From Oxalobacteraceae bacterium (lineage in GTDB: Bacteria; Pseudomonadota; Gammaproteobacteria; Burkholderiales; Burkholderiaceae_D): DNA of 64,000 bases. Position numbers and translations under genes: made by a program. Shown here one piece after another: positions 9,129 to 34,135 of the stretch. The notes under the pieces were generated by a model. It had not been told where the DNA came from, did no database searches, and saw only the letters and a program-made list of their open reading frames with translations. How positions within the stretch are numbered: position 1 is the first letter of the stretch; each line of letters opens with the position of its first letter. The DNA is taken from the NCBI GenBank assembly GCA_025352145.1, contig JANXTY010000061.1, positions 129,188-193,187 of the forward strand, written 5' to 3'.

Positions 9129-9404
9129 GTGGCACATAAAAAAGGCGGCGGCACTACGCGCAACGGCCGTGATTCTGAGTCGAAACGACTTGGCGTTAAA
9201 GTATACGGCGGCCAAACTATCAATGCGGGCGGTATCATTATTCGTCAACGTGGCACACCAGTGCGCGCTGGCGAAAATGTAGGCATGGGGAAAGACCACA
9301 CCTTGTTCGCGCTCGTTGATGGCAAGGTAAAATTTCTTGTCCAAGGCCCGCAAAGCAAACAGTTCGTTACTGTAGTACCTGCTGTAGTTGCAGCAGTTGC
9401 GTAA
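9129..9404 (+). CDS. rpmA: 50S ribosomal protein L27
   Basis: [24 protein letters not shown], with a GTG start. Confidence 0.95.
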
Positions 9405-9621
9405 TATTTTTAGCGCACGCAAGTAATGTAAGGCGCAAGCCTTCAATCAAAAGACTTTGTACTTGGCAGGGTCTTTTTAGGGCACCTCAAAAATCGACTG
9501 CGCGACCCATTTCGGGCCTGCGATGCTCGCCATGTTTCGATATGGCCGCGCTTCTCAACCCGGCCTTGGGCCGCTCGCAACGATTTTCTGTGGTGCCCTT
9601 TCGTTTTTATGGCGGCAAAAA

Positions 9622-10731
9622 ATGAAGTTCATCGATGAAGCGAAAATTGAGGTCATCGCAGGGAATGGAGGCAATGGCTGCGCCTCTTTTTGTCGTGAGA
9701 AATTCAGGCCCTTTGGCGGTCCAGACGGTGGCGATGGTGGTAAAGGCGGCAGCATCTTTGCGGTAGCTGATCGCAATATCAACACATTGGTTGACTTCCG
9801 TTTTTCCAAGTTGCATAAGGCTCGCGATGGTGAGAGTGGACGCGGCGCGGACTGCTACGGTAAAGGCGCAGATGACATCTTGTTGCGCATGCCGGTAGGT
9901 ACGCTCATCGTCGATCACGTTTCTGGTGAAAATATCGCAGACCTGACGGAGCACGGACAAATTGAATTGCTCGCTAAAGGTGGCGAGGGTGGCTGGGGCA
10001 ACATTCATTTCAAAACCTCGACTAATCGTGCACCTCGCCAAAAGGGGGATGGGAAAGAAGGGGAGCGTCGTGAACTGCGATTGGAATTGAAAGTGCTGGC
10101 CGACGTAGGTTTATTAGGTATGCCTAATGCAGGCAAGTCGACTTTTATTTCAGCCGTGTCGAATGCGCGCCCTAAAATTGCCGATTATCCATTTACGACT
10201 TTGCATCCGAATCTGGGTGTAGTACGCGTGAGTCATGAGAAAAGTTTCGTCATTGCCGACATTCCGGGTTTGATAGAAGGGGCATCGGAAGGTGCGGGAT
10301 TGGGCCATCAATTTTTGCGTCATTTGCAGCGCACCGGATTACTATTGCATATTGTTGATCTGGCCCCATTCGAGACGACGGTAGATCCCGTAAAGGAAGC
10401 CAAAGCACTCGTCAAAGAATTAAAAAAATACGATGAGTCCTTAGTAGATAAACCGCGTTGGTTGGTATTGAATAAGTTAGATATGGTTCCAGAGGAGGAA
10501 CGAAAAAAACGCGTCAAGGATTTCATTAAGCGCTTTGCGTGGAAGGGACCGATATTTGAGATTTCGGCCCTAAACCGAGAGGGATGTGAGGAACTTGTTA
10601 CTGCGATCTATCAGCATCTTGAAACCAAACGCAATTCAGAACAGCGTGCAGAAGAAACACAAATGACAGAGGAGGCGCGTGGAATTGCCTCGATAGACCC
10701 TGATGACCCTCGCTTCAAGGTAATGGAATAA
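9622..10731 (+). CDS. obgE: GTPase Obg/CgtA
   Basis: [11 protein letters not shown]...[15 protein letters not shown] Obg fold, followed by G1 GMPNAGKST and the other GTPase motifs. rplU-rpmA-obg synteny. Confidence 0.95.
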
Positions 10732-20382: not shown

Positions 20383-20468
20383 GACGAACTACGCAATGTA
20401 GTGCGGTAGTGCGAAAAATTCCCTCAGCAGTTTCCTTTAATCTTATTCAACCTGATTGCACGCTCATC

Positions 20469-21302
20469 ATGGACCTCATTCTTGCGCTAAAAGCACTCAT
20501 CATGGGCCTTGTCGAAGGGTTCACAGAGTTTCTCCCTATCTCGTCAACGGGGCATTTGATCCTCGCTGGAAGTTTGCTCGATTTTACGGGCGAAAAATTC
20601 AAAGTGTTTGAGATTGTTATTCAAGCCGGTGCGATTTTTGCCGTGTGCTGGGAATATCGGGTAAAAATGGGGCAAGTGTTATCTGGTCTATACGGCGATC
20701 CCAAGGAGCAACAATTCGCACGTAACTTAGTGATCGCTTTTGTGCCCGCAGCTGTGTTGGGACTTCTATTTAGCAAAGCGATCAAGGCACATTTGTTCTC
20801 TGCGATACCGGTGGCATTGGCGTTCATTATCGGCGGCTTGATTATTTTGTGGGTGGAGCGCCAGCACAAAGCCCACTCCGTTGTGGCACGTATTGATTCG
20901 GTAGACGATATGTCGGCACTTGACGCCCTCAAAATTGGTTGTGCTCAGGCATTTGCGCTCATTCCTGGCACCAGTCGTTCGGGTGCCACTATCATCGGCG
21001 GCATGTTGTTCGGCCTTTCCCGCAAGGTGGCTACCGAATTCTCCTTCTTCCTCGCCATCCCGACGCTCTTTGCAGCGACTGCGTACTCGCTCTACAAAGA
21101 CCGTGCCTTGCTCTCAGTGGCCGACGTGCCTCTATTCGGCATCGGCGCACTGGCCGCGTTTGTGTCGGCATTTTTATGTGTGCGCTGGCTTTTGCGGTAT
21201 ATCGCTACGCATGATTTTTCCGTATTCGCCTGGTACCGGATTGCTTTCGGGCTCTTGATTTTGGCCAGCCATTTTGGGGGATGGATTGTGTGGGCGGAAT
21301 AA
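20469..21302 (+). CDS. uppP: undecaprenyl-diphosphate phosphatase
   Basis: [29 protein letters not shown] and [10 protein letters not shown] motifs. The track ORF has a spurious 83-codon upstream extension. Confidence 0.9.
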
Positions 21303-21308
21303 TTTTTA

Positions 21309-23132
21309 ATGCATAATCAAGTTGGCAGCGCGCGCGCGCTCGATGTACTGCAAACGGTATTCGGCTATCCTTCCTTTCGAGGTCAGCAAGAGGAAATAGT
21401 CGATCACGTGGTGCGTGGCGGCGATGCCTTGGTACTGATGCCAACCGGTGGCGGTAAGTCCTTGTGTTACCAGATTCCTGCATTGTTGCGCGATGGCGTC
21501 GGTATTGTCGTGTCGCCCTTGATTGCGTTGATGCAGGATCAGGTGGATGCCTTGGCCGAAGTCGGCGTGCGCGCCGCTTTTCTCAATTCGACTCAAACTT
21601 TTGACGAGGCTAATCGCATAGAACGCAAGATGCGCAGTGGCGAACTCGATTTGGTCTATGTCGCGCCTGAACGCCTGATGACGCCGCGATGTTTGGAGTT
21701 GCTACAAGCATCCAGGATCGCCTTGTTTGCCATTGACGAAGCCCATTGCGTATCGCAATGGGGCCATGATTTTCGTCCTGAATATATTAAACTGTCGGTC
21801 CTGCACGAGCGTTTCCCCTCCGTGCCGCGTATTGCATTGACAGCCACTGCCGACCATCAAACCCGGGCAGAAATCGCACTGCGATTGCAGTTGACTGACG
21901 CGCTGCAATTCGTCTCCTCGTTCGACCGCCCCAACATCCGCTATCAGATCGTAGAAAAAGATAATGGGCGCAAGCAGCTCCTCGACTTTATTACGGGTGA
22001 GCATGCGGGCGATGCGGGTATTGTGTATTGTTTGTCCCGCAAAAAAGTGGAAGAGACCGCCGTATTTCTAAACGAGCATGGTATCAATGCGTTGCCGTAC
22101 CACGCGGGAATGGATTATCCGACACGCACCAAACACCAAGGCCGCTTTCTGCGCGAAGAAAGTATCGTCATGGTTGCTACGATCGCTTTCGGTATGGGAA
22201 TTGATAAGCCTGACGTGCGTTTCGTTGCGCATCTGGATTTACCCAAAAGCATCGAGGGTTATTATCAGGAAACCGGGCGTGCCGGACGCGATGGCACACC
22301 CGCCAATGCCTGGATGGCATACGGCCTGCAGGATGTGGTGCAGCAACGGCGCATGATTGATGAGTCCGAAGCGGATGAAACTTTCAAGCGCGTGCTGGGC
22401 GTCAAACTCGATGCCATGCTGGCTTTATGCGAGACATTGCACTGCCGACGCATGCGCTTGCTGGAATATTTCGGTCAACCTGCGACGCCTTGCGGCAATT
22501 GCGATACCTGCCTTAGGCCGCCCGTATCCTTTGATGCTACCGTGGTGGTGCAAAAGCTGCTGTCTGCCATTTATCGGGTCGAACAACGTTTCGGCGCGGT
22601 TCACGTGATTGACATCTTGCGGGGCGTGGATTCGGAGAGAATCAAGCAATGGCGGCATGAACAATTGTCGACGTTCGGGATAGGTGCAGAACGCAGCGAG
22701 GCGGAATGGCGTGCCATTTTGCGCCAGTCGATTGCATTAGGTTTGGTCAGCGTCGATTACGATGCCTACAATGCGCTCAAACTGACGGACGAGGCACGCC
22801 CCGTGTTGCGCGGTGAACAGAAGATTCAGTTACGACAATACGAAAAACCCCTCAAGCAAAGGCGTATCTCGGCGAAACCGAAAGGGTATGTCGAATCGGA
22901 TCTATCGATGGATGAGCAGGTCATTTTTGATAAGCTGCGCTGGTGGCGGGTAGAAACGGCACGCAAACACAATGTCCCTGCGTATGTCATTTTCCATGAT
23001 GCGACGATGCGCGAAATTGCCAAAGCCAAGCCGGGCTCGTTAGGCGATTTGCGTGGCGTATCCGGTGTTGGCGAGAAAAAACTGGAGACTTATGGAGAGG
23101 ACATCGTCGCACTGATTGCTGAGTTGATGTGA
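21309..23132 (+). CDS. recQ: ATP-dependent DNA helicase RecQ
   Basis: 607 aa with FGYPSFRGQQEEIV, MPTGGGKSLCYQ and DEAH (AIDEAHCVSQWGHDFRPEY) motifs, a Zn-binding Cys cluster, and an HRDC tail. Confidence 0.95.
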   Translation: MHNQVGSARALDVLQTVFGYPSFRGQQEEIVDHVVRGGDALVLMPTGGGKSLCYQIPALLRDGVGIVVSPLIALMQDQVDALAEVGVRAAFLNSTQTFDEANRIERKMRSGELDLVYVAPERLMTPRCLELLQASRIALFAIDEAHCVSQWGHDFRPEYIKLSVLHERFPSVPRIALTATADHQTRAEIALRLQLTDALQFVSSFDRPNIRYQIVEKDNGRKQLLDFITGEHAGDAGIVYCLSRKKVEETAVFLNEHGINALPYHAGMDYPTRTKHQGRFLREESIVMVATIAFGMGIDKPDVRFVAHLDLPKSIEGYYQETGRAGRDGTPANAWMAYGLQDVVQQRRMIDESEADETFKRVLGVKLDAMLALCETLHCRRMRLLEYFGQPATPCGNCDTCLRPPVSFDATVVVQKLLSAIYRVEQRFGAVHVIDILRGVDSERIKQWRHEQLSTFGIGAERSEAEWRAILRQSIALGLVSVDYDAYNALKLTDEARPVLRGEQKIQLRQYEKPLKQRRISAKPKGYVESDLSMDEQVIFDKLRWWRVETARKHNVPAYVIFHDATMREIAKAKPGSLGDLRGVSGVGEKKLETYGEDIVALIAELM

Positions 23133-23242
23133 TGCTTTTGTATTCGTCTGGGATATAGAAGCCGCATTAAAAAAGAGATGTTTTATGTGTATGGCCAAAC
23201 AAGATCATGCCCATTTGGATGAGATGAAGATAAGGATTTCTG

Positions 23243-24154
23243 GTGTCGATAGCGTTCTTTTCAAGTTACTCAATCATGGCCGTCATGGCTGTTTTGTATT
23301 GCATGTTGAGCGTGACTTCCCTCGGTTTGGCACTGGTGCTTACATTGACGCCGGAACGTCCATCTCACTCCCAATTACGGGATCAGGTAAAGGCGTGGTG
23401 GTTTATTTTCCCCCTCGTGACCTTGGCATTAGTGTTTTATCCCATTGGCCCGATTATGCTGACATGGGGGATTAATGGCCTCGTCATACGTGAACTTTCA
23501 ATACATTTCGCGGGACCGGCACGAAATTTTCGACTGCTTTGCACGGTTGTTTTTATCTTGATGACGATCCTGATATATTTTCAGATTCCCTACATGGGCG
23601 GTGCTTTTTTCGGAATAATTGTTATTCAACTCATCCATTTTTTCTGGCAAAAAAATGTAAATCAATTGTTGATCCTGCTCTTTCTCTTAAGTAATGTTGG
23701 ATGCAGTTTCATTATTCAATTGATGCGCTTTCCAATGTCCGCCGAAAAGATTCTTGCTTGGCTTTTCTATTTATTTGTGGTGACTTCTTTAAACGATATT
23801 GCGCAATTTATTTTTGGAAAAATCTTCGGCAAACACCGCATCGCCCACATAATCAGTCCCAACAAAACCTGGGAAGGCCTGGTTGGAGGTGTGTCGGCTA
23901 CACTATTTTTGTCGCTCATTCTTGGGAACTATCTGCAATTGGCAAGTGCGAATGGTCTTTTTTCTTTGGGCCTGCTATTGTCCTTAGGCGGTTTTGCGGG
24001 CGATCTGCTATTTTCAATGGCCAAGCGGTTTTTATGCATTAAAGATTTTTCACAGTTAATTCCCGGACATGGGGGGATTTTAGATCGTGTCGATAGTCTG
24101 ACAATGACTGCACCCTTGCTATATTTCGCCCTTTATTTCCGACATCTATTTTAA
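23243..24154 (+). CDS. ynbB: phosphatidate cytidylyltransferase paralog (CdsA family, YnbB-like)
   Basis: 303 aa polytopic protein. The CdsA signature SMAKRFLCIKDFSQLIPGHGGILDRVD is present. The size and neighbours match E. coli YnbB. Confidence 0.75.
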   Translation: MSIAFFSSYSIMAVMAVLYCMLSVTSLGLALVLTLTPERPSHSQLRDQVKAWWFIFPLVTLALVFYPIGPIMLTWGINGLVIRELSIHFAGPARNFRLLCTVVFILMTILIYFQIPYMGGAFFGIIVIQLIHFFWQKNVNQLLILLFLLSNVGCSFIIQLMRFPMSAEKILAWLFYLFVVTSLNDIAQFIFGKIFGKHRIAHIISPNKTWEGLVGGVSATLFLSLILGNYLQLASANGLFSLGLLLSLGGFAGDLLFSMAKRFLCIKDFSQLIPGHGGILDRVDSLTMTAPLLYFALYFRHLF

Positions 24155-24175
24155 CGACCAACTTTTGAGATAAGC

Positions 24176-25948
24176 ATGCACGCACAACTTAACTGGAATC
24201 CTATTGAATCGGGATTTAGCAGCGCTGATCAGTCGCGTCTATTTTATCGGGCGTGGCAGCCGATTCAGCCAAGGACAGATGACGAGCAACGTGCGCTCAT
24301 CTTTCTTCATCGCGGTCACGAACATTCTGGACGAATCGCGCCGTTGGTAGAGCAGTTCGGCTACCGACAAGACTGGGCTTTTGCGTGGGATGCCAGAGGT
24401 CATGGACATTCGCCAGGGGAGCGTGGCGATGCGCCCGGCTTTCAAACGCTTGTGCAGGATCTTGACGCTTTCATTACGCACATTGCTAATACCTACAAAA
24501 TCAAGCCGGAAAACATGCTGCTTGTTGCCAATAGCGTAGGCGCAGTGATCGCTGCTACGTGGATACATGATTACGCGCCAAAAATTCGTGGCGTTGTCAT
24601 GGCTGCAGCCGCATTTGAAATAAAACTGTATGTGCCGTTTGCGAAAGCCGCATTGCGCCTGGCGACATGCTTTAAATCAGATCTATTCGTGACGAGCTAT
24701 ATTCGTTCGTCGATGCTGACCCATTCAGCAGAACAGGCAAGAGAATATGACCAGGATCCGCTCATTACCAAAAATATTTCTGCACGGGTATTGTTGGATC
24801 TGGCCGAGACGGCCAAGCGTATTGTGAATGATGCGGGCGCAATTGACGTGCCAGTGTTGATGCTGGTGGCGGAGAAAGACTATGTGGTGCAACAAGCGCC
24901 GCAACAACAATTTTTTGATTGTCTCTCCTCTCCCTTGAAGCGCCTTCTTGTGGTAAAGAACTGCTATCACGCTATTTTTTATGAAAAGCAGGTGAAGGAG
25001 GTCATTGAGGTTGCACGGCAATTCATCGATACGTGTTTTGCGCAAAGCATTTTGTCCTCAGTGCATTATGTCAGTGCCGATACACAAAGCGATAGCGCGG
25101 AAAAATTTCGTGCATTGCAGGAAAGTGGTGCGGGCAACTTTGTACGAGATATTTTTTTTGGAATACAACGCGCCATGTTGGGGATTTTAGGGCCGTTGAG
25201 CCAAGGCATGCAAATAGGTATGACGCATGGGTTTGATTCCGGCACATCACTCGATTATGTTTATCGCAACCAGGCAAATGGGCGTTTGTTGATCGGACGT
25301 TTCATCGATCGCGGTTATTTGGATGCGATTGGTTGGCGCGGTATTCGGCAGAGAAAAATGCAGTTGCAAAACGCATTGTCGGATTTAATAGAGCATCATC
25401 CGCACGATCAGCCGTTGCGGATTCTGGATATTGCTGCCGGCGGTGGAAGATATGTTTTGGAAACCATAAAGCGCTTCCAGGATCGGGACCTCCACCTCAC
25501 TTTGCGCGACTATCGCACTAATAACCTGGAACAAGCACGGGCGCTTGCGGGAAAATTGGGCATAAAAACGCAGGTTCAGTATGAATGTTGCGATGCTTTT
25601 TCCGATGATAGTTATATGCAAGAAGAAGTGCTCTACGACATTGTCATTGTGTCCGGTTTGCATGAATTATTCAGCGAAAATGCGCTGGTCCTGCGGTCGT
25701 TGCGAGGCATTAAAAAGCAACTTGCACCAGCCGGTTACCTCATTTACACAGGCCAGCCATGGCATCCGCAATTACGTATGATTGCTAAAACTTTGGTGAA
25801 TCATCAAGGACAGGCTTGGAGGATGCGGCCACGACCGCAGGCTGAGATGGATGGGTTGGTTGCTAGCGTCGGCTGTAAAAAAATCGAATCACAGATTGGT
25901 CTCGCCGGGATATTTACTGTTTCGGTTGCTCAGAACCGTCATGATTGA
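24176..25948 (+). CDS. ynbC: alpha/beta hydrolase (lysophospholipase-like) fused to a class I SAM-dependent methyltransferase (YnbC-like)
   Basis: 590 aa. The N-terminal half has HRGHEHSGR and a nucleophile elbow (VANSVGA). The C-terminal half has SAM motif I (LRILDIAAGGGRYVLE). Confidence 0.7.
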   Translation: MHAQLNWNPIESGFSSADQSRLFYRAWQPIQPRTDDEQRALIFLHRGHEHSGRIAPLVEQFGYRQDWAFAWDARGHGHSPGERGDAPGFQTLVQDLDAFITHIANTYKIKPENMLLVANSVGAVIAATWIHDYAPKIRGVVMAAAAFEIKLYVPFAKAALRLATCFKSDLFVTSYIRSSMLTHSAEQAREYDQDPLITKNISARVLLDLAETAKRIVNDAGAIDVPVLMLVAEKDYVVQQAPQQQFFDCLSSPLKRLLVVKNCYHAIFYEKQVKEVIEVARQFIDTCFAQSILSSVHYVSADTQSDSAEKFRALQESGAGNFVRDIFFGIQRAMLGILGPLSQGMQIGMTHGFDSGTSLDYVYRNQANGRLLIGRFIDRGYLDAIGWRGIRQRKMQLQNALSDLIEHHPHDQPLRILDIAAGGGRYVLETIKRFQDRDLHLTLRDYRTNNLEQARALAGKLGIKTQVQYECCDAFSDDSYMQEEVLYDIVIVSGLHELFSENALVLRSLRGIKKQLAPAGYLIYTGQPWHPQLRMIAKTLVNHQGQAWRMRPRPQAEMDGLVASVGCKKIESQIGLAGIFTVSVAQNRHD

Positions 25949-26534
25949 GCGCCGATTGCAGGCGATTGAAGATCGTTAATACCAGCAGGCAAAGCATCAA
26001 GCCTAGCAAGCCATTTAACCAGATGGGTGCTACTTCGCTGGCGATGAGTAGCGCCAATAATCCAAAACATGCAGCGCGGTCGCTTTTGCCCATCGGTCCA
26101 TCGAATCGACGGGTTGCTCCCACGCACACCGCTAGCACGCCTGCAAACTCTGCGAGCAATGCGATGATCACCACCAGCACTAGCAAGGGCGCGGAAATCG
26201 CCGCTATCAGCGCGAAGGGGCAATAGAGCGTGACATCGGAGATCTGATCGCCCATTTCGTTGAGCAATGCGCCCATTCGTGTTTTTTGTCCCGTCGCGTT
26301 AGCTAACATGCCATCAATCGCATTGAGCGCCATTCGTATCAGCATGAAAAATGGCACTCCCACCCATAGCCAGCTATTGCCTGGGTACAGCGCGAGCAAA
26401 AGACCATACACCAGCGACAGCGCTATCGTAAAAATGGTGATCTGATTCGGCGATATGCGCCATGCTGCCAATTTCGTCAATATCGGCGCTAGCAACTGCT
26501 GAAATCTTGGTTTGAATTGGTAAATAGAAGGCAT
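25914..26534 (-). CDS. ynbA: CDP-alcohol phosphatidyltransferase family protein (YnbA-like)
   Basis: 206 aa membrane protein with the motif DGMLANATGQKTRMGALLNEMGDQISD, a variant of DGx2ARx8Gx3Dx3D. Confidence 0.7.
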   Translation of the reverse strand: MPSIYQFKPRFQQLLAPILTKLAAWRISPNQITIFTIALSLVYGLLLALYPGNSWLWVGVPFFMLIRMALNAIDGMLANATGQKTRMGALLNEMGDQISDVTLYCPFALIAAISAPLLVLVVIIALLAEFAGVLAVCVGATRRFDGPMGKSDRAACFGLLALLIASEVAPIWLNGLLGLMLCLLVLTIFNRLQSALNHDGSEQPKQ

Positions 26535-27766
26535 TAATTTTTTATTTCGCCCATATAGAGTTTGGCTAGCAATATACAGCGGCTATAGCCCATGGCGCAA
26601 TGAAGATACACGCTGCGTCCGGCGCTTATTTCGCTGCGTATGGCTGTGACGATTTCTGTTGTCACGGAGGGGTCGGGAGAAATCAGATCGAGCAGAGGAA
26701 AATGCCGGTAGGGATGCTTGCGCAAATTGGCTGTTTCACTTAGTTCGCATGACAAGTCAATGATCACGCAGGCATCGGGTAACTTTTCTGTTTCAATAGC
26801 GCTTAAGCGACGCCCTATCCATAGTCGCTCACTGACGTTAACAAACAGGGGATTTCGTCGCTCATGAAATCGCACATAGTGCCACGCCAGCCAATAACCA
26901 AAAAAATAGGGGGCATAGAAAAAGCAGATGAACCCTGAATGTCGGCCTGCATGTTTATGTAAAAAATTGTTATCCTGTCGACGATAGGCAAGACTAACGA
27001 GCAAAAGAGAGAGCAGCAGATACAGGGCCAACACACTACGCAGAGCGATGACTCCAACAAGAAAAACAATACCACTCGCCATCAGATAATAGAACGCTAC
27101 ATTTGGCTGTTCTCGATCAGGGCGAATGAGGAAAATGGCGGCCAGACCCAGCACCAAGCCACCTAAAATATCTAACAAGTGATGCTGATAAGTGAATAAG
27201 GTGGCCACCGTGACCAACACTAACCAGAGCGCCATGCAGATTTGCATCGCCCTGTGTGCAAGCCCTTGTTTGAGAGATACCCGCCACGAAGGCCAATAGA
27301 TCGCGCAGAAGGCCACGTGCAAGGAGGGAAGTTGATTATAGGGGCGGTCAAGCGCGGCAAGAAAATCAAATAGCGCAGCGTAGAATGGTGATGCGATCGA
27401 TGGCTTGGGAAAGCTAAATCGTAGAGGGTAGAGTGCGAAGATAAGCGTAGCGCTCACGGTCGCCAGTAATAAGCGTTGGTTTAGAACGCGTAAGTCATCT
27501 TTTTTTTCTATCCATAAAAAACTGGCTGCAAATAATATCCCTGAACTCAAGTAGGGAATAATCATCCATTCCAGAAAGGGCATGTGATACTCAAAAGAAA
27601 ACGCGACATTGCGAGTAACATGGCGCTGTTGTGCTAGAAAATTGCTGACTTGATAGCACAGTGTAAATGCCAGCGCATTGATCAAAAAATAACGCGTGCG
27701 TTGGGGCCAGGTGGCCTTTTCTAAAGAATGCATTTGCGTGGAGAACCAGGTTGTCATGACTGCCAT
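26534..27766 (-). CDS. ynbD: PAP2-superfamily membrane domain fused to a dual-specificity (CX5R) phosphatase domain (YnbD-like)
   Basis: 410 aa. The N-terminal ~300 aa is polytopic with PSLH and YQHHLLDILGG PAP2-type motifs. The C-terminal domain has HCAMGYSR (nt 26579-26602). Confidence 0.7.
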   Translation of the reverse strand: MAVMTTWFSTQMHSLEKATWPQRTRYFLINALAFTLCYQVSNFLAQQRHVTRNVAFSFEYHMPFLEWMIIPYLSSGILFAASFLWIEKKDDLRVLNQRLLLATVSATLIFALYPLRFSFPKPSIASPFYAALFDFLAALDRPYNQLPSLHVAFCAIYWPSWRVSLKQGLAHRAMQICMALWLVLVTVATLFTYQHHLLDILGGLVLGLAAIFLIRPDREQPNVAFYYLMASGIVFLVGVIALRSVLALYLLLSLLLVSLAYRRQDNNFLHKHAGRHSGFICFFYAPYFFGYWLAWHYVRFHERRNPLFVNVSERLWIGRRLSAIETEKLPDACVIIDLSCELSETANLRKHPYRHFPLLDLISPDPSVTTEIVTAIRSEISAGRSVYLHCAMGYSRCILLAKLYMGEIKN

Positions 27767-27786
27767 TCGTCTCTTATTCTATCAAC

Positions 27787-28887
27787 ATGGCACCTACTCA
27801 AAAATATAATCGTTGTATGGTCATGGCGGGGGGCGGCTTTCGTTTCGGGTATTACCTTGGAATATACGCTGCCGCATGTCAACGCAATAAAGCGCCGGAC
27901 TTGCTTTTGGCAAGTTGTGGCGGCGCGATTGCAGCAGCGATTATTCAAGTCCTGCCCGATGATGCGGAGCGCAAGGCATGGCTCAGTTCCTACGAGATGT
28001 ACGCGTTTTGGTGCCAGCTTCGCTCAGCGCGGCACGCGACTCTCACCCAGTCTTTTATATCTGCTTTCCGGCGACGATATTTTATGCGCAGCGTAAAAAT
28101 AATTTCTGATTTGTTCCATGACTATTTGTTTGAGATTCCTGCAGTATTGCCCTTGCCGCCAAATGCATTGCATTCGGTAGGAAAAACCCCCGCGTTAGGC
28201 ATTATCGGTGGAAAATTACTCTATGAAAAACATGAAGTGGGACAGCGCAGAGGTGCGCGGAAATTATTTGCTGAGACACTATTTTGCAATGACAGAACCG
28301 GCAGTTTATTAGTTGGCATGTCATCCGCATTGGGCGAAATCCCCGGGCAAGATAATGCCATTGCACCGCACATAATTACCGACTCCCATATGTCGCTCAA
28401 TGACGCGGTGCGGATATCCATTGCCGACATGTTTTATTTTCCTTGCTATTCTCATGTGAGCGGTAACTATATCGGCGGTGTGATTGACTTATTTCCCCTA
28501 GAGATTGCCAATCGCCTGGCAGATAGTGTGATGATGGAATTAAAGCAGCCTTTCGATCAAGCCTTCGCCATTCCTGCCTTGCGCACCGTCTTGGGTATCG
28601 ATGGAAATGCGCGGTTACGTCATGTTCATGCACAGTTTGCCGATACATGGATAGATACTTCCGATGCCCATCTTATATTGGCAAATCAGCAGATCCGAAA
28701 ACGATTGTCTTGGCAGCACAATCAGATTCGGTTAGACGTTCCATCCACTCATGCGAAATACGTGGCGCAAATTGAAGCGCAATGGGAATACGGTTATCAG
28801 CGGGGATTGGAAGCCTGCGAGAAAGGGCAGCCCAACTGTAAAAAACCTATGCGGCATGTGACCAAACACAACAAGGCAGAACAATGA
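27787..28887 (+). CDS. divergent patatin-like phospholipase family protein
   Basis: N-terminus MVMAGGGFRFGYYLGIYAA...DLLLASCGGAIAAA resembles the patatin oxyanion loop plus nucleophile elbow, but both are atypical. The start could be 27817. Confidence 0.5.
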   Translation: MAPTQKYNRCMVMAGGGFRFGYYLGIYAAACQRNKAPDLLLASCGGAIAAAIIQVLPDDAERKAWLSSYEMYAFWCQLRSARHATLTQSFISAFRRRYFMRSVKIISDLFHDYLFEIPAVLPLPPNALHSVGKTPALGIIGGKLLYEKHEVGQRRGARKLFAETLFCNDRTGSLLVGMSSALGEIPGQDNAIAPHIITDSHMSLNDAVRISIADMFYFPCYSHVSGNYIGGVIDLFPLEIANRLADSVMMELKQPFDQAFAIPALRTVLGIDGNARLRHVHAQFADTWIDTSDAHLILANQQIRKRLSWQHNQIRLDVPSTHAKYVAQIEAQWEYGYQRGLEACEKGQPNCKKPMRHVTKHNKAEQ

Positions 28888-29615
28888 AAATCATGATCAT
28901 TGGCGGTACCAGTGGCATTGGGCTGGCGTTGGCCCAGCACTATCTCGCCCAAGCAAATGAGGTCGCCATTTGCGGTCGAGATTTACAGCGTGTTGAGGGC
29001 AGTCTCTTTAAACAATACGCTAAATTATCCGGGTATGAATTCGACATCGCTGATCAAGCTGCGCTGGGAAATGCTATGAAGAATTTCTCGGCAACAGGTC
29101 TGGATATGCTTATTGTTGCGGCTGGATTTTATTTCAATACCAGACACCATCAGCTCGATGAAGCTACTACGTTACGCATGCTGCAAACCAATGTAAGCGG
29201 ACTAAGCCACGCGTTTGAACTTGGCGCAAAAATTATGCTGGCCCAAAAATCAGGACACGTGGTCGCCATTGGGTCGGCGGCGGGATTGCTGAAAAATTAT
29301 CCCGGAGCGTCACTGTATAGCGCAAGCAAACGCACAGTATTAAATCTGTGCGATACCTACCGAATTGCATTAGCGCCATTCTCAATCGCCGTGACTGCTA
29401 TTGTGCCCGGCTATGTAGATACGCTTAAATTACGTCAACTCAATCATGGGAATGCCAGCCACAAGCTATTTATTCTGTCAGAGAAAAAAGCGGTGACACA
29501 TATCGTGAGTGCGATAGAAAACCGAGTGCGGATATCCGTATTTCCTTGGAAAATGCAGTGCTTGATTAATGTACTCAATCAGTTGCCAAGAGCACTGCTG
29601 GCGATGCGCAGATAA
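28884..29615 (+). CDS. short-chain dehydrogenase/reductase (SDR)
   Basis: MKIMIIGGTSGIGLALA Rossmann motif and YSASK catalytic motif. 4-nt overlap with the upstream gene. Confidence 0.85.
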   Translation: MKIMIIGGTSGIGLALAQHYLAQANEVAICGRDLQRVEGSLFKQYAKLSGYEFDIADQAALGNAMKNFSATGLDMLIVAAGFYFNTRHHQLDEATTLRMLQTNVSGLSHAFELGAKIMLAQKSGHVVAIGSAAGLLKNYPGASLYSASKRTVLNLCDTYRIALAPFSIAVTAIVPGYVDTLKLRQLNHGNASHKLFILSEKKAVTHIVSAIENRVRISVFPWKMQCLINVLNQLPRALLAMRR

Positions 29616-29737
29616 GTCATTTTGGAGACCTTTTTCCTGCGCTTGTTAGGGGCAATAGAACAAAGGAAGGTTCGCCTTCACCTCTTAACTGATGTTGCGC
29701 AGTGCCCGGAAAAAATCGTTCACTTGGGTTGGGCACT

Positions 29738-29760
29738 CTAGGGAACGGCATGCCCGTTAG
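29738..29760. repeat. degenerate REP-like palindrome (GGCATGCC core)
   Basis: ctagggaacggcatgcccgttag. It is related to the copies at 29796, 43317 and 50012. Confidence 0.6.
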
Positions 29761-29795
29761 TTGGTTCAGCCTTGAAAAATAGCTGAACTAGTATC

Positions 29796-29820
29796 GGGCA
29801 CGGCATGCCGTGCCCCTACG
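29796..29820. repeat. REP-like palindrome
   Basis: gggcacggcatgccgtgcccctacg. The first 20 nt form a perfect palindrome. Its reverse complement matches the 50012 copy at 24 of 25 positions. Confidence 0.75.
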
Positions 29821-29884
29821 ATCTCTGCACGCTGAGTAACGTCAGCTGTTAACCTGAATTATTTCTTCAGAAAAATGGGGCGAT

Positions 29885-30355
29885 TTATTTTTCAGACAAA
29901 AGGGTGACATCTGCTTTGCCGAAAAAATCCTGAATCTCGATCATTTTGTTGAATTCACCGACTTTGTAGGAAAAAATGGTGGAGCCTCCAGCTTCTTGGA
30001 TTTTATATTTTTCTGTGATGTTGCTCTTATAAAAATTCACCACTTTAGCAACTGAACTACGCGTGATAAATCGCATGGTTACGTTGGTATCAGAAGATTT
30101 TTTCTCGACTTTTAATCGTTCTGAATAAAGTGGAATTCTATAGAAAGAATTTGCGTTTGAACCGGTAGAGGCGTCAGCTGCCACATTGTTGTTGATCTTG
30201 ACTTCCTGGGTTTGCGCCGTCATTGGAGGGCGGTCCCCATAATGAATTTTCCCATCGTTGTCGGTCCATTTTTGGATTGCTTGCGCATGGAGCTGAGCCG
30301 AAAAAAGAACCGACAAAATAAGAACATATTTCATAGCGGACGGAAAAATTCTCAT
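29885..30355 (-). CDS. DUF4124-like secreted protein
   Basis: Signal peptide followed by WTDNDGKIHYGDRPP, the DUF4124 signature. It sits 5 nt downstream of the GH2 gene. Confidence 0.6.
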   Translation of the reverse strand: MRIFPSAMKYVLILSVLFSAQLHAQAIQKWTDNDGKIHYGDRPPMTAQTQEVKINNNVAADASTGSNANSFYRIPLYSERLKVEKKSSDTNVTMRFITRSSVAKVVNFYKSNITEKYKIQEAGGSTIFSYKVGEFNKMIEIQDFFGKADVTLLSEK

Positions 30356-30360
30356 GTGAA

Positions 30361-32994
30361 TTAAGGTTGCTTGCTGCGAAGAGTCACTTCCGCACCGGTT
30401 AGTCCATCGCTGCTGGCTTTGAGAACGAGCGGCCCGGACTCCCCTGGTTTGGTGCGAACAATAACGAGAGCCAAACCATTATAGGCGGCACGTTGGGGCG
30501 ACTGGAATGACTCGAAACTCGTGGCATCTCCGTTGTCTGTCGCGATGATTTCACCAGGACCGGTCAGTGTGAAGGCGATGCGGTTCTTTGAACGCGGTAC
30601 GAGCAACCCTTTTTGATCGGTGACGGTGACGGTGATGAAGGATAAATCTTTTCCATCAGCGCGCAGCACAGTGCGGTCGGCGGCGAGTTCCAGTTTTGCG
30701 GCTACCCCGGTCGTGCGGACTACGTCTTCGGCCCACTTCACCCCGTTTTTATAGGCGACGGCACGCAGTTCGCCGGGCTGATACTTTACGTCATCCCAAC
30801 GCAAACGATATTCTAGCGGCCCGCGTTTTTTGCGGCCGAGTGACTGGCCGTTAAGGAAGAGTTCAGCTTCGTCACCGGAGGTGTACAGATGTACCGGCGT
30901 GATTTGGCCGACACGATCTGGCCAGTTCCAGTGCGGTAGCAAGTGCGCCATCGGCAGCTCCGGCCGCCAGCGCGCTTGATAGAGATAGAAGCGGTCTTTC
31001 TTGAAACCGGCAAGATCGATGATGCCGAAATAAGAACTGCGTGAAGGCACTTTTATTTTCTGCAATTCGGCGAGTTCTTTCGCCGCACGTTCCTGTTGTG
31101 CCGGGTCGGTGAAGTTGAGAATGTTGGTCGTGTCAGCGTTGTAAGGCGTCGGCTCGCCGAGGTAGTCGAAACCAGTCCATACAAACTCACCGGCGACGAA
31201 AGGATTCTCGTCCAGACCTTTGAATTCGATATCTGGTGCAAAGGCCCAGCGTGGCGCAGACAGGTCATAGCTACTTACCTGAAAATCCGTTAGTCCTTTG
31301 GATTTATCATCACTTACCGGGAAAAAATATTCTCCACGCGAGCTGACGGTAGAAGCGGTTTCGCTGCCGATCAACGGAATATGCGGCGCACTCTGGTGAA
31401 ACTTTGCGTATTCGCCCGGTTTGTAGTTGTAGCCCAGAACATCGATGGCGGTTTGGAATCCGTTGTAACCGGAACCGGTATTGTTGAACCCGGCGACGGT
31501 CAAGCGAGTACGGTCTTCGCCGCGCACAATCTCGGCAAGATGTGCCGCGACCTTCCATCCCTCGGGCGCGCCTTGTTCGCGGATCTCGTTGCCGATGCTC
31601 CAGAGAATAACGCTGGGGTGGTTGCGGTCGCGCCGCACTTGGGCGCGGAGATCTTTCTCATGCCAGTCGGCAAACAGCAGGTTGTAATCATTAGGTTTTT
31701 TACCCATACGCCAGGCATCAAAGGCTTCGTCCATGATCAGAAAGCCCATACGGTCAGCGAGGTCAAGCAGCTCGGGAGCGGGTGGATTGTGACTGGTGCG
31801 GATGGCGTTGACGCCCATCTCGCGCAGAATTTCCAGCTGTCTTTCCAGCGCTCGCACATTCAATGCCGCACCTAAGGCTCCCAGATCGTGATGGTCGCAG
31901 ACGCCTTGGATCGGCACGCGTTCGCCGTTTAAGAGAAAGCCGCGTGCGGGATCGAAGGCAATGCTGCGGATGCCGAAAGGGGTCTCGATAACATCGGCGA
32001 TTTTATTTTTTTCTGTGATAGTGGTAACGGCTACGTAACGGCGCGGCGTGCGTGGGCTCCAAAGCTGTGGATGAGTAACGACCAACGATTGCGCGATCAG
32101 CGCCTGTCGACCGGCAACGATTTTAGTGGGATACGATGGCGTGCTGGTAGCCACTGGCTCGCCGGTTTTGAGGCCGGCAGCATCCAGCGCATAAATGGCG
32201 GTCGCTACCTGAACTTGGGTTTCGAGGGCGTGGTTTTCAATATTGACTTTGACGTCAACCGTGGCGGCGTCTTTGGTGATGCTAGGTGTGGTGACGAAGG
32301 TGCCGTACTGCGCAATATGAACGGGCGAGGTTTTGACCAGCCAGACGTTACGGTAAATGCCGCCGCCCGGATACCAACGCGAAGAGTTCTCTGGATTCTC
32401 TACGCGAATTGCCAGTACGTTGTCTGCACCGGTTTTTAAATACGGCGTGAGGTCGAGTCGCCATGATGCGTAACCATAAGGCCAGCCGCCGACGAATTGT
32501 CCGTTGAGCCATACTGTTGCGTAAGCCATTGCGCCGTCGACATCCAGATACACGCGTTTGCCGGCATCAGCGACCGGGGAGGTGAAATGTTTGCGATACC
32601 ACGCGACACCCCACCAGGGCAGTTTGCCGGTCTCGCCCGGATATTCCTGCTTGAATGCGCCCTCAATCCCCCAATCGTGCGGCAGGTTCAGGGTGCGCCA
32701 TGCAGAATCATCGAAACCCGCTTGCGTGGTTGCCACTGCTGTACCTGGCTCGCCTATTGGGCGGACGCGTTTTTTTTCGCCGACATTGGCAAAATCTGCA
32801 CCGGTCGCTCCGACCCAATCCTTAATTTTTGCGTAACTCAACTGATCGCCCGTGCCTGTAGGATCGCCTTTGGCAAACCGCCAGTTGGCGTTGAAGGAAA
32901 TGCGTTCGCGGGCCGCATCCTCGGCCTTGGCGGGAGCGAAGGCCAGGCTGAGATATAGCGGGAAAAAAGCGAGTAGGAAGCGGGCTGGTTTCAT
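30361..32994 (-). CDS. glycoside hydrolase family 2 (beta-galactosidase/glucuronidase-like), secreted
   Basis: 877 aa. Signal peptide, FNANWRFAKGDP sugar-binding N-terminus, and NHPSVILWSIGNE acid/base motif. Confidence 0.85.
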   Translation of the reverse strand: MKPARFLLAFFPLYLSLAFAPAKAEDAARERISFNANWRFAKGDPTGTGDQLSYAKIKDWVGATGADFANVGEKKRVRPIGEPGTAVATTQAGFDDSAWRTLNLPHDWGIEGAFKQEYPGETGKLPWWGVAWYRKHFTSPVADAGKRVYLDVDGAMAYATVWLNGQFVGGWPYGYASWRLDLTPYLKTGADNVLAIRVENPENSSRWYPGGGIYRNVWLVKTSPVHIAQYGTFVTTPSITKDAATVDVKVNIENHALETQVQVATAIYALDAAGLKTGEPVATSTPSYPTKIVAGRQALIAQSLVVTHPQLWSPRTPRRYVAVTTITEKNKIADVIETPFGIRSIAFDPARGFLLNGERVPIQGVCDHHDLGALGAALNVRALERQLEILREMGVNAIRTSHNPPAPELLDLADRMGFLIMDEAFDAWRMGKKPNDYNLLFADWHEKDLRAQVRRDRNHPSVILWSIGNEIREQGAPEGWKVAAHLAEIVRGEDRTRLTVAGFNNTGSGYNGFQTAIDVLGYNYKPGEYAKFHQSAPHIPLIGSETASTVSSRGEYFFPVSDDKSKGLTDFQVSSYDLSAPRWAFAPDIEFKGLDENPFVAGEFVWTGFDYLGEPTPYNADTTNILNFTDPAQQERAAKELAELQKIKVPSRSSYFGIIDLAGFKKDRFYLYQARWRPELPMAHLLPHWNWPDRVGQITPVHLYTSGDEAELFLNGQSLGRKKRGPLEYRLRWDDVKYQPGELRAVAYKNGVKWAEDVVRTTGVAAKLELAADRTVLRADGKDLSFITVTVTDQKGLLVPRSKNRIAFTLTGPGEIIATDNGDATSFESFQSPQRAAYNGLALVIVRTKPGESGPLVLKASSDGLTGAEVTLRSKQP

Positions 32995-33005
32995 TGAATG
33001 GGACT

Positions 33006-34046
33006 TTATTTGGTAGAAGTGGATGGGGGAGTGGGTGTGCCAACACGCAGTGTTTCGACCAGCGCAGCAGGAACGGCGATCACGGTCCCGTGGCGCATCC
33101 GAACCGGCGTACCTTCATCGGGGAAATGCATTTGGGCAGTAACGTCTTCCCATGTGACAAGATCGCGCGAGCGCAATGCGCCGTAGTGCTTGGAGGTGTA
33201 AGCATCGAAATAAACGATGGCGTCATTGCCCACCTGCAAGGCAGTCGGCCCTTCAACCCACAGACCGCGTGGCGTGATGGGAGCGCTGAGTTGACCAAAC
33301 GGCCCTTGTAAATCCGTTGCATCCGCTAGCTGGAGATATTTTTTAGGCGGGTTGCGTGTTTCGTCTTTAACGATAAGATGATCCCGGCCATTAAAGCGCA
33401 GGAACGTAGCGTCGATCACACTAAAACCTGGATCGTAAAAGAGTTTGGTGGGGGAAAATGTGACGAAGTCCTTAGTCGTGGTGGAATATATCCGATGATT
33501 GTATTGTTCTTCGGATGAACCAATGGTCTCTGTGAACTTTCCCGTGACAGTGGAGGACCAGAAAATCAAAAACTCGCTGCGTTTTTCGTCATACACGATC
33601 TCGGGCGCCCACGTATTGAGTACACCCGGCTCATGTGCCATTACTGGAATTGCCTTCTGTTCAGACCAGGTGACAATGTCCTTTGAAGATGCGTAGCCGA
33701 TAACGTTTTCCTTCCAGCCTGCGGTCCATACCATGTGGTAAGTACCGTCGGGGCCGCGCACGATACACGGATCGCGCATGAGTTTGGATATGCCAACGGT
33801 GGGTGTGAGAGTGCTGCGCCCGCCGTTGAGTTTTTCCCAATGATAACCATCGGTGCTGGCGGCCAGGTGCAGGCCGTCTTCGCCATTTTTGGTGAAGTAG
33901 GTGAAGAGGTAAGCACTCGTTTTTACCGGGGGCTGCACCGCCCCCGCCGTCGGTGCTGTCATCGCTGTTGGGGAACAGGCAGAGGTGAGTGCAAGACCGA
34001 CAGCCAAGGCTACCGGCATGACGAGGTGGCGGTGAAAGGGCTTCAT
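33006..34046 (-). CDS. five-bladed beta-propeller glycoside hydrolase (GH43-like) lipoprotein
   Basis: MKPFHRHLVMPVALAVGLALTSAC lipobox. LMRDPCIVRGPDGTYHMVWT and WAPEIVYD motifs resemble GH43. The track start at 34070 would overlap the upstream gene. Confidence 0.6.
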   Translation of the reverse strand: MKPFHRHLVMPVALAVGLALTSACSPTAMTAPTAGAVQPPVKTSAYLFTYFTKNGEDGLHLAASTDGYHWEKLNGGRSTLTPTVGISKLMRDPCIVRGPDGTYHMVWTAGWKENVIGYASSKDIVTWSEQKAIPVMAHEPGVLNTWAPEIVYDEKRSEFLIFWSSTVTGKFTETIGSSEEQYNHRIYSTTTKDFVTFSPTKLFYDPGFSVIDATFLRFNGRDHLIVKDETRNPPKKYLQLADATDLQGPFGQLSAPITPRGLWVEGPTALQVGNDAIVYFDAYTSKHYGALRSRDLVTWEDVTAQMHFPDEGTPVRMRHGTVIAVPAALVETLRVGTPTPPSTSTK

Positions 34047-34135
34047 ATTATTTATGATCTTCGTCGCCAAGCGGACGTTCCGTAGTGAAAGCCGCGCTCT
34101 TTGGTACGGCGAACGTTTCTACCGGATCGGGATGC
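33983..34135. repeat. copy A of a diverged ~150-bp duplication (CE12 3' end, junction, GH43 signal peptide)
   Basis: Aligns by eye with 35374-35525 at a constant offset of ~1390 nt. Shared strings include ctctttggtacggc, ttcatattatt and tgcaagRccgaca. Confidence 0.7.

Follow-up and report, generated by a model that had tools for sequence, protein, structure and literature searches.

The four genes of Escherichia coli ynbABCD form one of the few lipid-enzyme operons of that organism that still have no product, and homologues of one encoded protein, YnbC, are widespread in Proteobacteria, Verrucomicrobia, Planctomycetes and Acidobacteria. A related gene set occupies positions 23243-29615 of a 64,000-nucleotide stretch of DNA from an Oxalobacteraceae bacterium (GenBank assembly GCA_025352145.1, contig JANXTY010000061.1; the whole stretch is called the window below), where a preliminary description made from the sequence alone had recognized ynbA-D-like genes, rearranged and extended by genes for a patatin-like protein (Pat) and a short-chain dehydrogenase/reductase (SDR). 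The locus thus raises the question whether the six genes belong together, and what the two additional ones contribute. Comparison across genomes shows that the six genes form a conserved module, inherited together and related to ynbABCD, that Pat and SDR are accessory and limited to two lineages, and that the pair substitutes positionally for the PlsC-type acyltransferase of other ynb clusters. That they also work as one functional module, a clade-specific version of the ynbABCD membrane-lipid set making a minor, non-essential membrane lipid, is the reading that we consider reasonably probable.

A conserved six-gene module related to ynbABCD

Six open reading frames (ORFs), all intact, fill 23243-29615 exactly (Table 1), with ynbB-ynbC on the plus strand followed by ynbA-ynbD on the minus strand and patatin-SDR again on the plus strand. 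The preliminary description had placed four adjacent genes here, encoding a CdsA paralogue, a hydrolase::methyltransferase fusion, a CDP-alcohol phosphatidyltransferase and a PAP2::CX5R-phosphatase fusion, and both the adjacency and the architectures are borne out by ORF calls and Pfam searches. The YnbB-like protein scores 171 bits with PF01148 (CTP_transf_1), the YnbC-like protein 210 bits with PF12146 (Hydrolase_4) and 341 bits with PF12147 (Methyltransf_20), the YnbA-like protein 37.9 bits with PF01066 (CDP-OH_P_transf; gathering threshold 22), and the YnbD-like protein 31.4 bits with PF01569 (PAP2; threshold 27.2) and 26 bits with PF14378; the patatin scores 36.2 bits with PF01734 (threshold 27.7) and the SDR 114.7 bits with PF00106 (adh_short). 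The protein sizes that had been given for E. coli K-12 proved exact when its locus was fetched (YnbA, 201 aa; YnbB, 298 aa; YnbC, 585 aa; YnbD, 430 aa).

The proteins were compared with their E. coli counterparts by BLASTP, with the housekeeping enzymes PgsA, PgpB and CdsA as controls for YnbA, YnbD and YnbB, respectively. Three of the four proteins that had been likened to YnbA-D are clear matches in this comparison. The YnbC-like protein matches E. coli YnbC at 41 % identity over 587 residues, its full length (E = 1e-157, 453 bits); the YnbA-like protein matches YnbA at 44 % over its full length (128 bits, versus 30 bits for PgsA); and the YnbD-like protein matches YnbD at 30 % over 372 residues, nearly its full length (148 bits), with no BLASTP match to PgpB. 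The fourth, the YnbB-like protein, is not a clean reciprocal best match: it aligns with E. coli YnbB at 44 % over the C-terminal 115 residues only (105 bits), a near tie with CdsA (43 %, 102 bits), and BLASTP was therefore rejected as a discriminator between the two in favor of profiles. The profile of B proteins from the closest relatives of this locus (clade 1, defined below) gives 168 bits for E. coli YnbB versus 145 for CdsA, and that of the other clades 291 versus 147 bits. The assignment as YnbB thus follows from a modest sequence preference together with conserved context; no second cdsA was found within the window, which alone was searched.

To place the locus among its relatives a genome collection was searched with a YnbC alignment and the best 80 of at least 565 YnbC loci were scanned, so that frequencies in distant clades describe a sample and not a census; the six window proteins were mapped onto the scanned loci by tblastn. 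(YnbC homologues as a whole comprise at least 7,997 clusters at E <= 1e-10.) The nearest relatives of the window YnbC, at ~70 % identity, are from Oxalobacteraceae. Clade 1 was defined as the 26 loci with a YnbC at least 57 % identical to that of the window; they come from Oxalobacteraceae, Comamonadaceae, Sphaerotilus, an Oleiphilaceae genome and a metagenome-assembled genome (MAG) of Rhodanobacteraceae, and two of them are cut by contig ends. Co-occurrence of the six genes beyond this genome, which the preliminary description had proposed as a check, is found in every complete clade-1 locus: all 24 carry the six genes in the same arrangement. The layout is kept in Solimicrobium (where the order of SDR and patatin is swapped), Collimonas and Rhodoferax, and the flanking genes differ across the four loci compared. 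The Oleiphilaceae genome (J1-3, locus L020) and the Rhodanobacteraceae MAG (L021) both have the complete Burkholderiales-type arrangement, with YnbC 59-62 % identical to that of the window, which suggests horizontal transfer of the whole six-gene unit. In pairwise distance matrices the correlation of Pat and SDR with the ynb genes is as strong as that among the ynb genes themselves (Mantel r = 0.77 for YnbC-Pat, 0.79 for YnbC-SDR and 0.84 for YnbD-Pat; range 0.72-0.84, p <= 0.0005).

Accessory genes and gene arrangement

Outside clade 1 the composition of the cluster is different. The 59 distant loci, with YnbC at ~41-48 % identity, come from organisms that include E. coli, Pseudomonas, Acinetobacter, Burkholderia sensu stricto, Cupriavidus, Lysobacter, Stenotrophomonas, Verrucomicrobia, Planctomycetes and Acidobacteria, and carry ynbA, ynbC and ynbD, usually with ynbB. 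Patatin and an adjacent SDR are absent from all 59, a single locus (L027) having a weak (38 %) SDR match 5.5 kb away. A PlsC-type acyltransferase gene (PF01553) lies instead inside the cluster in 49 of the 59 distant loci versus none of the 26 clade-1 loci (examples are L048:13484-14104 and L049:~9301-10029). In gammaproteobacterial and some other loci it takes part in the order A-C-D-x-AT-B (AT, acyltransferase), and in loci of the Planctomycetes-Verrucomicrobia-Chlamydiae group and related ones in the order A-B-AT-C-D. Nowhere in the 85 loci examined do the acyltransferase and the patatin-SDR pair occur together. The proposal that patatin and SDR are lineage-specific is therefore upheld, but, given this complementary distribution, the pair is more aptly called an alternative to the acyltransferase than a simple addition to the cluster. 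One of the acyltransferase-type loci, on a Verrucomicrobiae contig, also has a gene of the phosphoenolpyruvate (PEP)-mutase family directly downstream of ynbD (L049:13569-14426, minus strand).

The second lineage with the pair emerged when metagenomes were scanned with distant patatin-family members as seeds. Contigs L124-L128 (GC content 42 %) encode an 822-aa YnbA::YnbC fusion (L127:115-2583; L125:157-2625), after which come Pat and SDR, the genes overlapping by 4 nt; ynbB and ynbD are convergent and lie downstream of Pat-SDR. Identity to the window proteins is 31 % for Pat, 36 % for SDR and 42 % for YnbC. Since L125 and L127 are 95 % identical in DNA, these contigs were counted as one lineage; in it the same six functions recur at great depth and in an arrangement of their own, and the fusion links the CDP-alcohol transferase to the hydrolase/methyltransferase without an intermediary.

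These distributions bear on whether patatin and SDR might be mere neighbors of a rearranged ynb cluster, functionally unrelated to it. Such a reading could draw on the fact that no biochemical link of patatin or SDR to ynb is on record, and on close patatin homologues (48-55 % identity) in contexts that contain neither ynb genes nor an SDR: at L101:7929-9029 and L118:7956-9047 the patatin gene stands beside an alpha/beta-hydrolase gene and a divergent gene of the AMP-binding acyl-CoA-ligase type, and at L107:7977-9032 and L112:7986-9062 it stands by itself between ychF and an Fe-S assembly gene. The patatin as an exclusive partner of ynb is ruled out by these homologues. The ychF/Fe-S site of the solo genes is the same that flanks the six-gene locus of Solimicrobium (L002), which suggests that the rest of the cluster was lost or relocated there. 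Functional independence is nevertheless very improbable, given adjacency in 24 of 24 complete clade-1 loci whose flanks differ where compared, translational coupling of Pat-SDR to the ynbA::ynbC fusion in an independent lineage, a distribution complementary to that of the cluster acyltransferase, and co-divergence with the ynb genes.

Within the window the genes are tightly packed. The spacing between ynbB and ynbC is 21 nt, and an AAGGA Shine-Dalgarno sequence lies 7 nt 5' of the GTG start of ynbB. The two convergent pairs noted previously (ynbB-ynbC on the plus strand, ynbD-ynbA on the minus strand) are present, and their 3' ends, those of ynbC and ynbA, overlap by 35 bp (25914-25948), as they do by 41-89 bp in three relatives (L002, L003 and L004), leaving no space in which terminators could separate the facing transcription units. 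One nucleotide is shared by the ynbD stop and the ynbA start, and four by the patatin and SDR genes. The start of ynbD may alternatively be Met4 at 27757 or Met12 at 27733, so that the divergent gap between ynbD and patatin, which had been put at no more than ~85 bp, is indeed 20-53 bp depending on the start chosen (20 bp for maximal ORFs, 29 bp in the NCBI annotation of MAG GCA_043763345.1 and 53 bp from Met12). For the patatin the first ATG is the likely start, because residues ahead of Met11 (K-Y-x-R-C) are kept in homologues. A consensus promoter/terminator scan of 22900-30000 gave about as many matches as shuffled sequences (10 versus 10.5 and 13 versus 8.8) and was not used to define transcription units.

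Table 1. Coordinates of the six genes and the divergent intergenic region in the window
Feature	Position	Strand	Description
ynbB-like CdsA-family cytidylyltransferase	23243..24154	+	303 aa, GTG start, PF01148
ynbC-like hydrolase::SAM-methyltransferase fusion	24176..25948	+	590 aa, PF12146 + PF12147
ynbA-like CDP-alcohol phosphatidyltransferase-family membrane protein	25914..26534	-	206 aa, PF01066
ynbD-like membrane PAP2-type + C-terminal CX5R phosphatase-like protein	26534..27766	-	410 aa, PF01569
divergent ynbD/patatin intergenic region	27767..27786	.	20 bp at maximal ORF extent
patatin-fold protein, small Cys-type family	27787..28887	+	366 aa, PF01734
classical short-chain dehydrogenase/reductase (SDR)	28884..29615	+	243 aa, PF00106

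The genes that flank the cluster in the window (acyl-CoA dehydrogenase, DUF1439, UppP/BacA and RecQ on one side; DUF4124, GH2 and GH43 on the other) are unrelated to it and are not kept in relatives. Immediately upstream of ynbB lie a gene for the undecaprenyl-diphosphatase BacA/UppP (20463-21302) and recQ (21309-23132); the adjacency of this lipid phosphatase looks coincidental, as these neighbors are not kept in relatives. Downstream, 30361-34070 holds a gene for a GH2 glycosidase (877 aa) and a GH43-like gene on the minus strand, in a region with a GC content of 0.53-0.55 versus 0.47-0.49 in the six-gene cluster, which may be a separate carbohydrate-utilization island.

Catalytic residues and the proposed route

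The window protein described as patatin-like has the fold and profile of the family, but the residues of canonical patatin catalysis are not there. The oxyanion loop is present (G15-G17 with R19), and the position of the nucleophile is occupied by Cys44 (27916-27918), in the sequence ASCGG, which HMMER aligns with the nucleophilic Ser of GASAG in VipD; the Ser-Asp dyad of canonical patatins (Ser of GxSxG, Asp of DG[GA]) is not found. Cys44 is invariant in 25 locus homologues and in a 30-sequence alignment, where the site reads [A/G]-[S/T]-C-G-[G/A]. When 1.84 billion representative proteins were searched exhaustively with a profile, the family came to 366 clusters at 50 % identity; among 143 family representatives that cover the site the nucleophile position is Cys in 138 and Ser in 4, and the position of the canonical DG[GA] Asp (I229 in the window protein) is never acidic and mostly hydrophobic. 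D234, five residues past the canonical site, was considered as a relocated catalytic Asp, a candidacy weakened by alternation with Asn (105 D, 38 N). Besides the Gly-rich oxyanion loop, the family as a whole keeps D38, C44-G45, S68, R209, S211, D/E214, E239, R276 and D290. The conserved oxyanion hole and near-invariant elbow Cys argue for covalent acyl-thioester catalysis, whether by a hydrolase or a transacylase, and the protein is probably a catalytic variety new to the patatin fold; no NCBIfam model matches it, and a literature search found no paper describing a Cys-type patatin.

A profile search of the patatin against PDB sequences reached VipD only, at E ~0.4, so that comparison of folds was needed. 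The AlphaFold2 model (pLDDT 89.4, pTM 0.90) places Cys44 at the elbow between strand 39-43 and helix 45-55, and its best PDB matches in Foldseek are CapE, PlpD, CapV, VipD and patatin (probability 1.0 for the top matches). CapE and CapV being effectors of the cyclic-oligonucleotide-based antiphage signaling system (CBASS), the gene might be taken for a CapV/CapE-like phage-defense effector that lies beside lipid genes by chance. The probability of this is negligible: the TM-scores of these matches are only 0.3-0.45, the nucleophile is a Cys, the family stands apart from canonical patatins, neither a cyclase nor a sensor gene lies nearby, and PADLOC, run on the six proteins, returned only a weak generic methyltransferase match (to YnbC) and none for the patatin. 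Coincidental adjacency and a defense function are both effectively excluded.

The SDR has the motifs of classical members, namely GGTSGIG (G7-x3-G11-x-G13), N103, S131, Y145 and K149. It belongs to a narrow orthologous group from the same taxa as the clade-1 loci; its nearest solved structures are assorted ketoreductases, and it reaches no NCBIfam equivalog threshold. In YnbC the N-terminal domain has monoacylglycerol lipases as its nearest solved structures (E = 3e-18), with S120, D235, H265 and the loop HRGHEHSG invariant among homologues, and the C-terminal domain has the S-adenosylmethionine (SAM) motif I ILDIAAGGG; a literature search found no publication on the Methyltransf_20 (PF12147) domain. 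The YnbB-like protein, credited earlier with a full CdsA signature, has 26 of its 27 positions, a strict match being prevented by Ala at position 3; the pattern (S-x-[LIVMF]-K-R-x4-K-D-...-H-G-G-x-x-D-R-x-D) was validated on E. coli CdsA and YnbB, which both match it strictly. The catalytic residues of YnbB, YnbC and the SDR are intact.

The two remaining proteins depart from their families in ways that matter for the chemistry. The best NCBIfam matches of YnbA are archaetidylinositol-phosphate (AIP) and phosphatidylinositol-phosphate (PIP) synthases, at 75 bits versus an equivalog cut-off of 180, and its best matches among solved structures are AF2299 and mycobacterial PIP synthase. When aligned with these two structures it is found to lack the four-Asp signature D1xxD2GxxAR-x8-GxxxD3xxxD4: the window motif is N71-x2-D74-G-x2-A-N79-x8-G88-x3-N92-x3-D96, with N71 on D1, N92 on D3 and N79 on the signature Arg. 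Asn occupies D1 and D3 in at least 98 % of 76 YnbA homologues, including that of E. coli (L001:7622-8227), and the substitutions hint at altered metal use or acceptor chemistry.

In YnbD, of the PAP2 motifs KX6RP, PSGH and SRX5HX3D, the second reads PSLH and the third QHHLLD (HX3D with no SR), and the first is atypical, [R/K]-P being found just 4 residues ahead of PSLH; taken together, the motifs fall between those of PAP2 and PAP2_3 (transferase-type) members. The PAP2::CX5R fusion that had been described is present as regards the loop HCAMGYSR, which is accompanied by the upstream Asp of PLLDL, but the CX5R domain falls below the Pfam threshold (DSPc, 16.8 bits versus a cut-off of 33.5) and is truncated C-terminally. 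PSLH and CX5R occur in all 71 full-length YnbD homologues and QHHxxD in most. The HCX5R loop is kept in 25 of 25 clade-1 YnbD proteins, and ~40 C-terminal residues are missing where the ynbA start overlaps ynbD: 14 residues follow the P-loop in the window protein, a median of 16 in clade 1 and a median of 55 in other clades. In a sequence search of YnbD against PDB only small protein tyrosine phosphatases appeared, at E ~0.3, and the PAP2 part had no match.

In the route that we favor YnbB would make a private pool of CDP-diacylglycerol (CDP-DAG) from phosphatidate, and YnbA, with its Asn-substituted metal motif and PIP/AIP synthases as nearest relatives, would transfer the phosphatidyl group to an acceptor that is probably phosphorylated. 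YnbD would then remove phosphate through its PAP2-type domain, its CX5R domain or both, and YnbC could deacylate (by its monoacylglycerol-lipase-like Ser-Asp-His domain) and methylate (by its SAM domain) the product or an intermediate. The accessory genes would determine the acyl or backbone make-up of the substrate, a task that would fall to the PlsC-type acyltransferase in most lineages; in the window it would be shared by the Cys-nucleophile patatin, as a transacylase or lipid acyl-hydrolase that forms an acyl-thioester, and the NAD(P)-dependent SDR. The route would end in a membrane lipid that is minor and non-essential. The preliminary description had outlined similar steps; its rearranged ynbA-D set stands, and its statement that the product of the ynb pathway is unassigned stands as well, a literature search having found no paper that names one and none that treats ynbABCD as a pathway, but the stepwise chemistry stays conditional and meets some friction.

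Several points weigh against the favored route. E. coli YnbB fails to complement a cdsA knockout (PMC6362211), over-expressed E. coli YnbD rescues neither phosphatidylglycerol-phosphate (PGP)-phosphatase nor undecaprenyl-pyrophosphate (C55-PP)-phosphatase deficiency (PMC7413402), and biochemical support for the steps stops at YnbB. Among the proteins themselves, the patatin has neither the canonical Asp nor a conserved His across its family, the Asn-substituted motif of YnbA means that canonical chemistry, as judged from the residues, is not guaranteed, and the CX5R domain of clade 1 is truncated (~16 residues after the P-loop), with that of the window below the Pfam threshold. As to the association of the genes, co-divergence is what any vertically inherited gene set would show, and patatin homologues at 48-61 % identity are also found where there are no ynb or SDR neighbors.

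What is known of E. coli YnbB can also be read in a different way. This protein is a non-essential CdsA paralogue whose overproduction raises the glycolipid MPIase, from which its authors inferred the ability to form CDP-DAG (PMC6362211). The module might accordingly build or recycle a pyrophosphate-linked glycolipid of the MPIase type in place of a classical phospholipid, with YnbB supplying CDP-DAG, YnbA placing phosphatidyl on a sugar-1-phosphate to give X-PP-DAG (for example N-acetylglucosamine (GlcNAc)-PP-DAG), and the PAP2 domain of YnbD serving as lipid pyrophosphatase. The effect of YnbB overproduction would fit, as would the formation of compound I (GlcNAc-PP-DAG) from phosphatidate, CTP and GlcNAc-1-phosphate (PMC6362211); pyrophosphate lipids such as C55-PP are typical substrates of PAP2 enzymes (discussed in PMC7413402), and the Asn substitutions of YnbA could reflect a phosphate rather than a hydroxyl acceptor. 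However, in the MPIase papers compound I is assigned to CdsA/YnbB itself as its synthase and MPIase is scarcely altered when ynbB is knocked out (PMC6362211), YnbD does not rescue loss of C55-PP phosphatase (PMC7413402), no glycosyltransferase or sugar-activating gene is conserved in the ynb loci examined, and the roles of YnbC, patatin and SDR would be left unexplained. We consider this reading unlikely.

A further possibility is that the module is mainly catabolic, dismantling damaged or foreign phospholipids under envelope stress (by the patatin, the lipase-like YnbC and the phosphatases) and re-activating the phosphatidate (by YnbB and YnbA), with no dedicated new lipid. Its four hydrolytic catalytic domains (monoacylglycerol-lipase-like, patatin-fold, PAP2 and CX5R) would suit salvage, and so would the activation of the E. 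coli ynbA promoter by the envelope-stress-linked regulator BglJ-RcsB (PMC3950696) and the non-essentiality of the genes (PMC6362211). Against this, the dedicated CdsA paralogue, CDP-alcohol transferase and SAM methyltransferase of the module are biosynthetic enzymes, as is the PlsC acyltransferase found in other clusters, and the YnbA::YnbC fusion, which couples transfer to hydrolysis and methylation, is a better fit to a product-forming route; salvage as the main role is thus improbable in our estimation.

The favored reading of a lipid-making module can be extended, although the extension is doubtful. The patatin would then represent a new catalytic class (Cys nucleophile, neither canonical Asp nor conserved His) acting as an acyl-thioester lipid transacylase, which with the SDR would replace the PlsC-type acyltransferase in a CDP-DAG-dependent route, and the product would be a new, possibly methylated lipid that might also explain E. 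coli ynbABCD. The near-invariant elbow Cys in a patatin fold bears in any case on how the Ser-Asp dyad can be rebuilt, and the comparative picture as a whole (alternative accessory modules, YnbA::YnbC fusion, altered YnbA motif, truncated CX5R domain) narrows the genes, residues and acceptors to examine.

Comparison with known systems

The closest known counterpart is E. coli ynbA-ynbB-ynbC-ynbD (b1408-b1411), which has the same four domain architectures at near-identical sizes and shares with the window the variant YnbA motif and the PSLH, QHHxxD and CX5R motifs of YnbD. The E. coli genes are co-linear on one strand in the order A-B-C-D, whereas those of the window are divided into B-C and, on the opposite strand, A-D; gene order varies in other phyla too, and order therefore does not define the wider ynb family. 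E. coli ynb has no patatin, SDR or acyltransferase gene, whereas the window has patatin and SDR, and 48 residues follow the CX5R P-loop in E. coli YnbD as compared to 14 in the window protein.

In the logic of its proposed chemistry the module resembles the PIP/AIP synthases and the PgsA-PgpB route, in which CDP-DAG is joined to a phosphorylated alcohol and the product is then dephosphorylated. PIP/AIP synthases have Asp at D1 and D3, however, where YnbA has Asn at both, and no inositol-phosphate synthase is linked to the ynb cluster; the difference from PgsA-PgpB is that E. coli YnbD does not replace the PGP phosphatases (PMC7413402). The N-terminal domain of YnbC shares the HG-x-x-EH oxyanion loop and Ser-Asp-His triad of monoacylglycerol lipases and the lysophospholipase L2 PldB, and its C-terminal domain shares SAM motif I with class I SAM methyltransferases; unlike any of these, YnbC combines both in one polypeptide and is tied to a CDP-alcohol transferase, to which it is fused in L125 and L127. 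The window patatin has in common with Pat17, ExoU, VipD, PlpD and CapV/CapE the patatin fold, the Gly-rich oxyanion loop and the strand-helix nucleophile elbow, but where canonical patatins have the GxSxG Ser and the DG[GA] Asp its family has Cys and a hydrophobic residue, and profile searching does not connect canonical patatins to the Cys-type family, a discrete set of 366 clusters.

Finally, the acyltransferase-type ynb clusters of Pseudomonas, Acinetobacter, Lysobacter, Burkholderia sensu stricto, Verrucomicrobia and Planctomycetes are built on the same core quartet and, like the window cluster, include an additional gene for acyl handling. In the only mention of them that was found, one of these, in the order A-C-D-AT-B, was described by annotation only as a 'membrane phospholipid remodelling/biogenesis module' in a 2026 genome paper on Pseudomonas protegens (PMC13541209). 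The difference between these clusters and the window lies in the accessory gene, which is a PF01553 acyltransferase in the former and the Cys-type patatin with its SDR in the latter.

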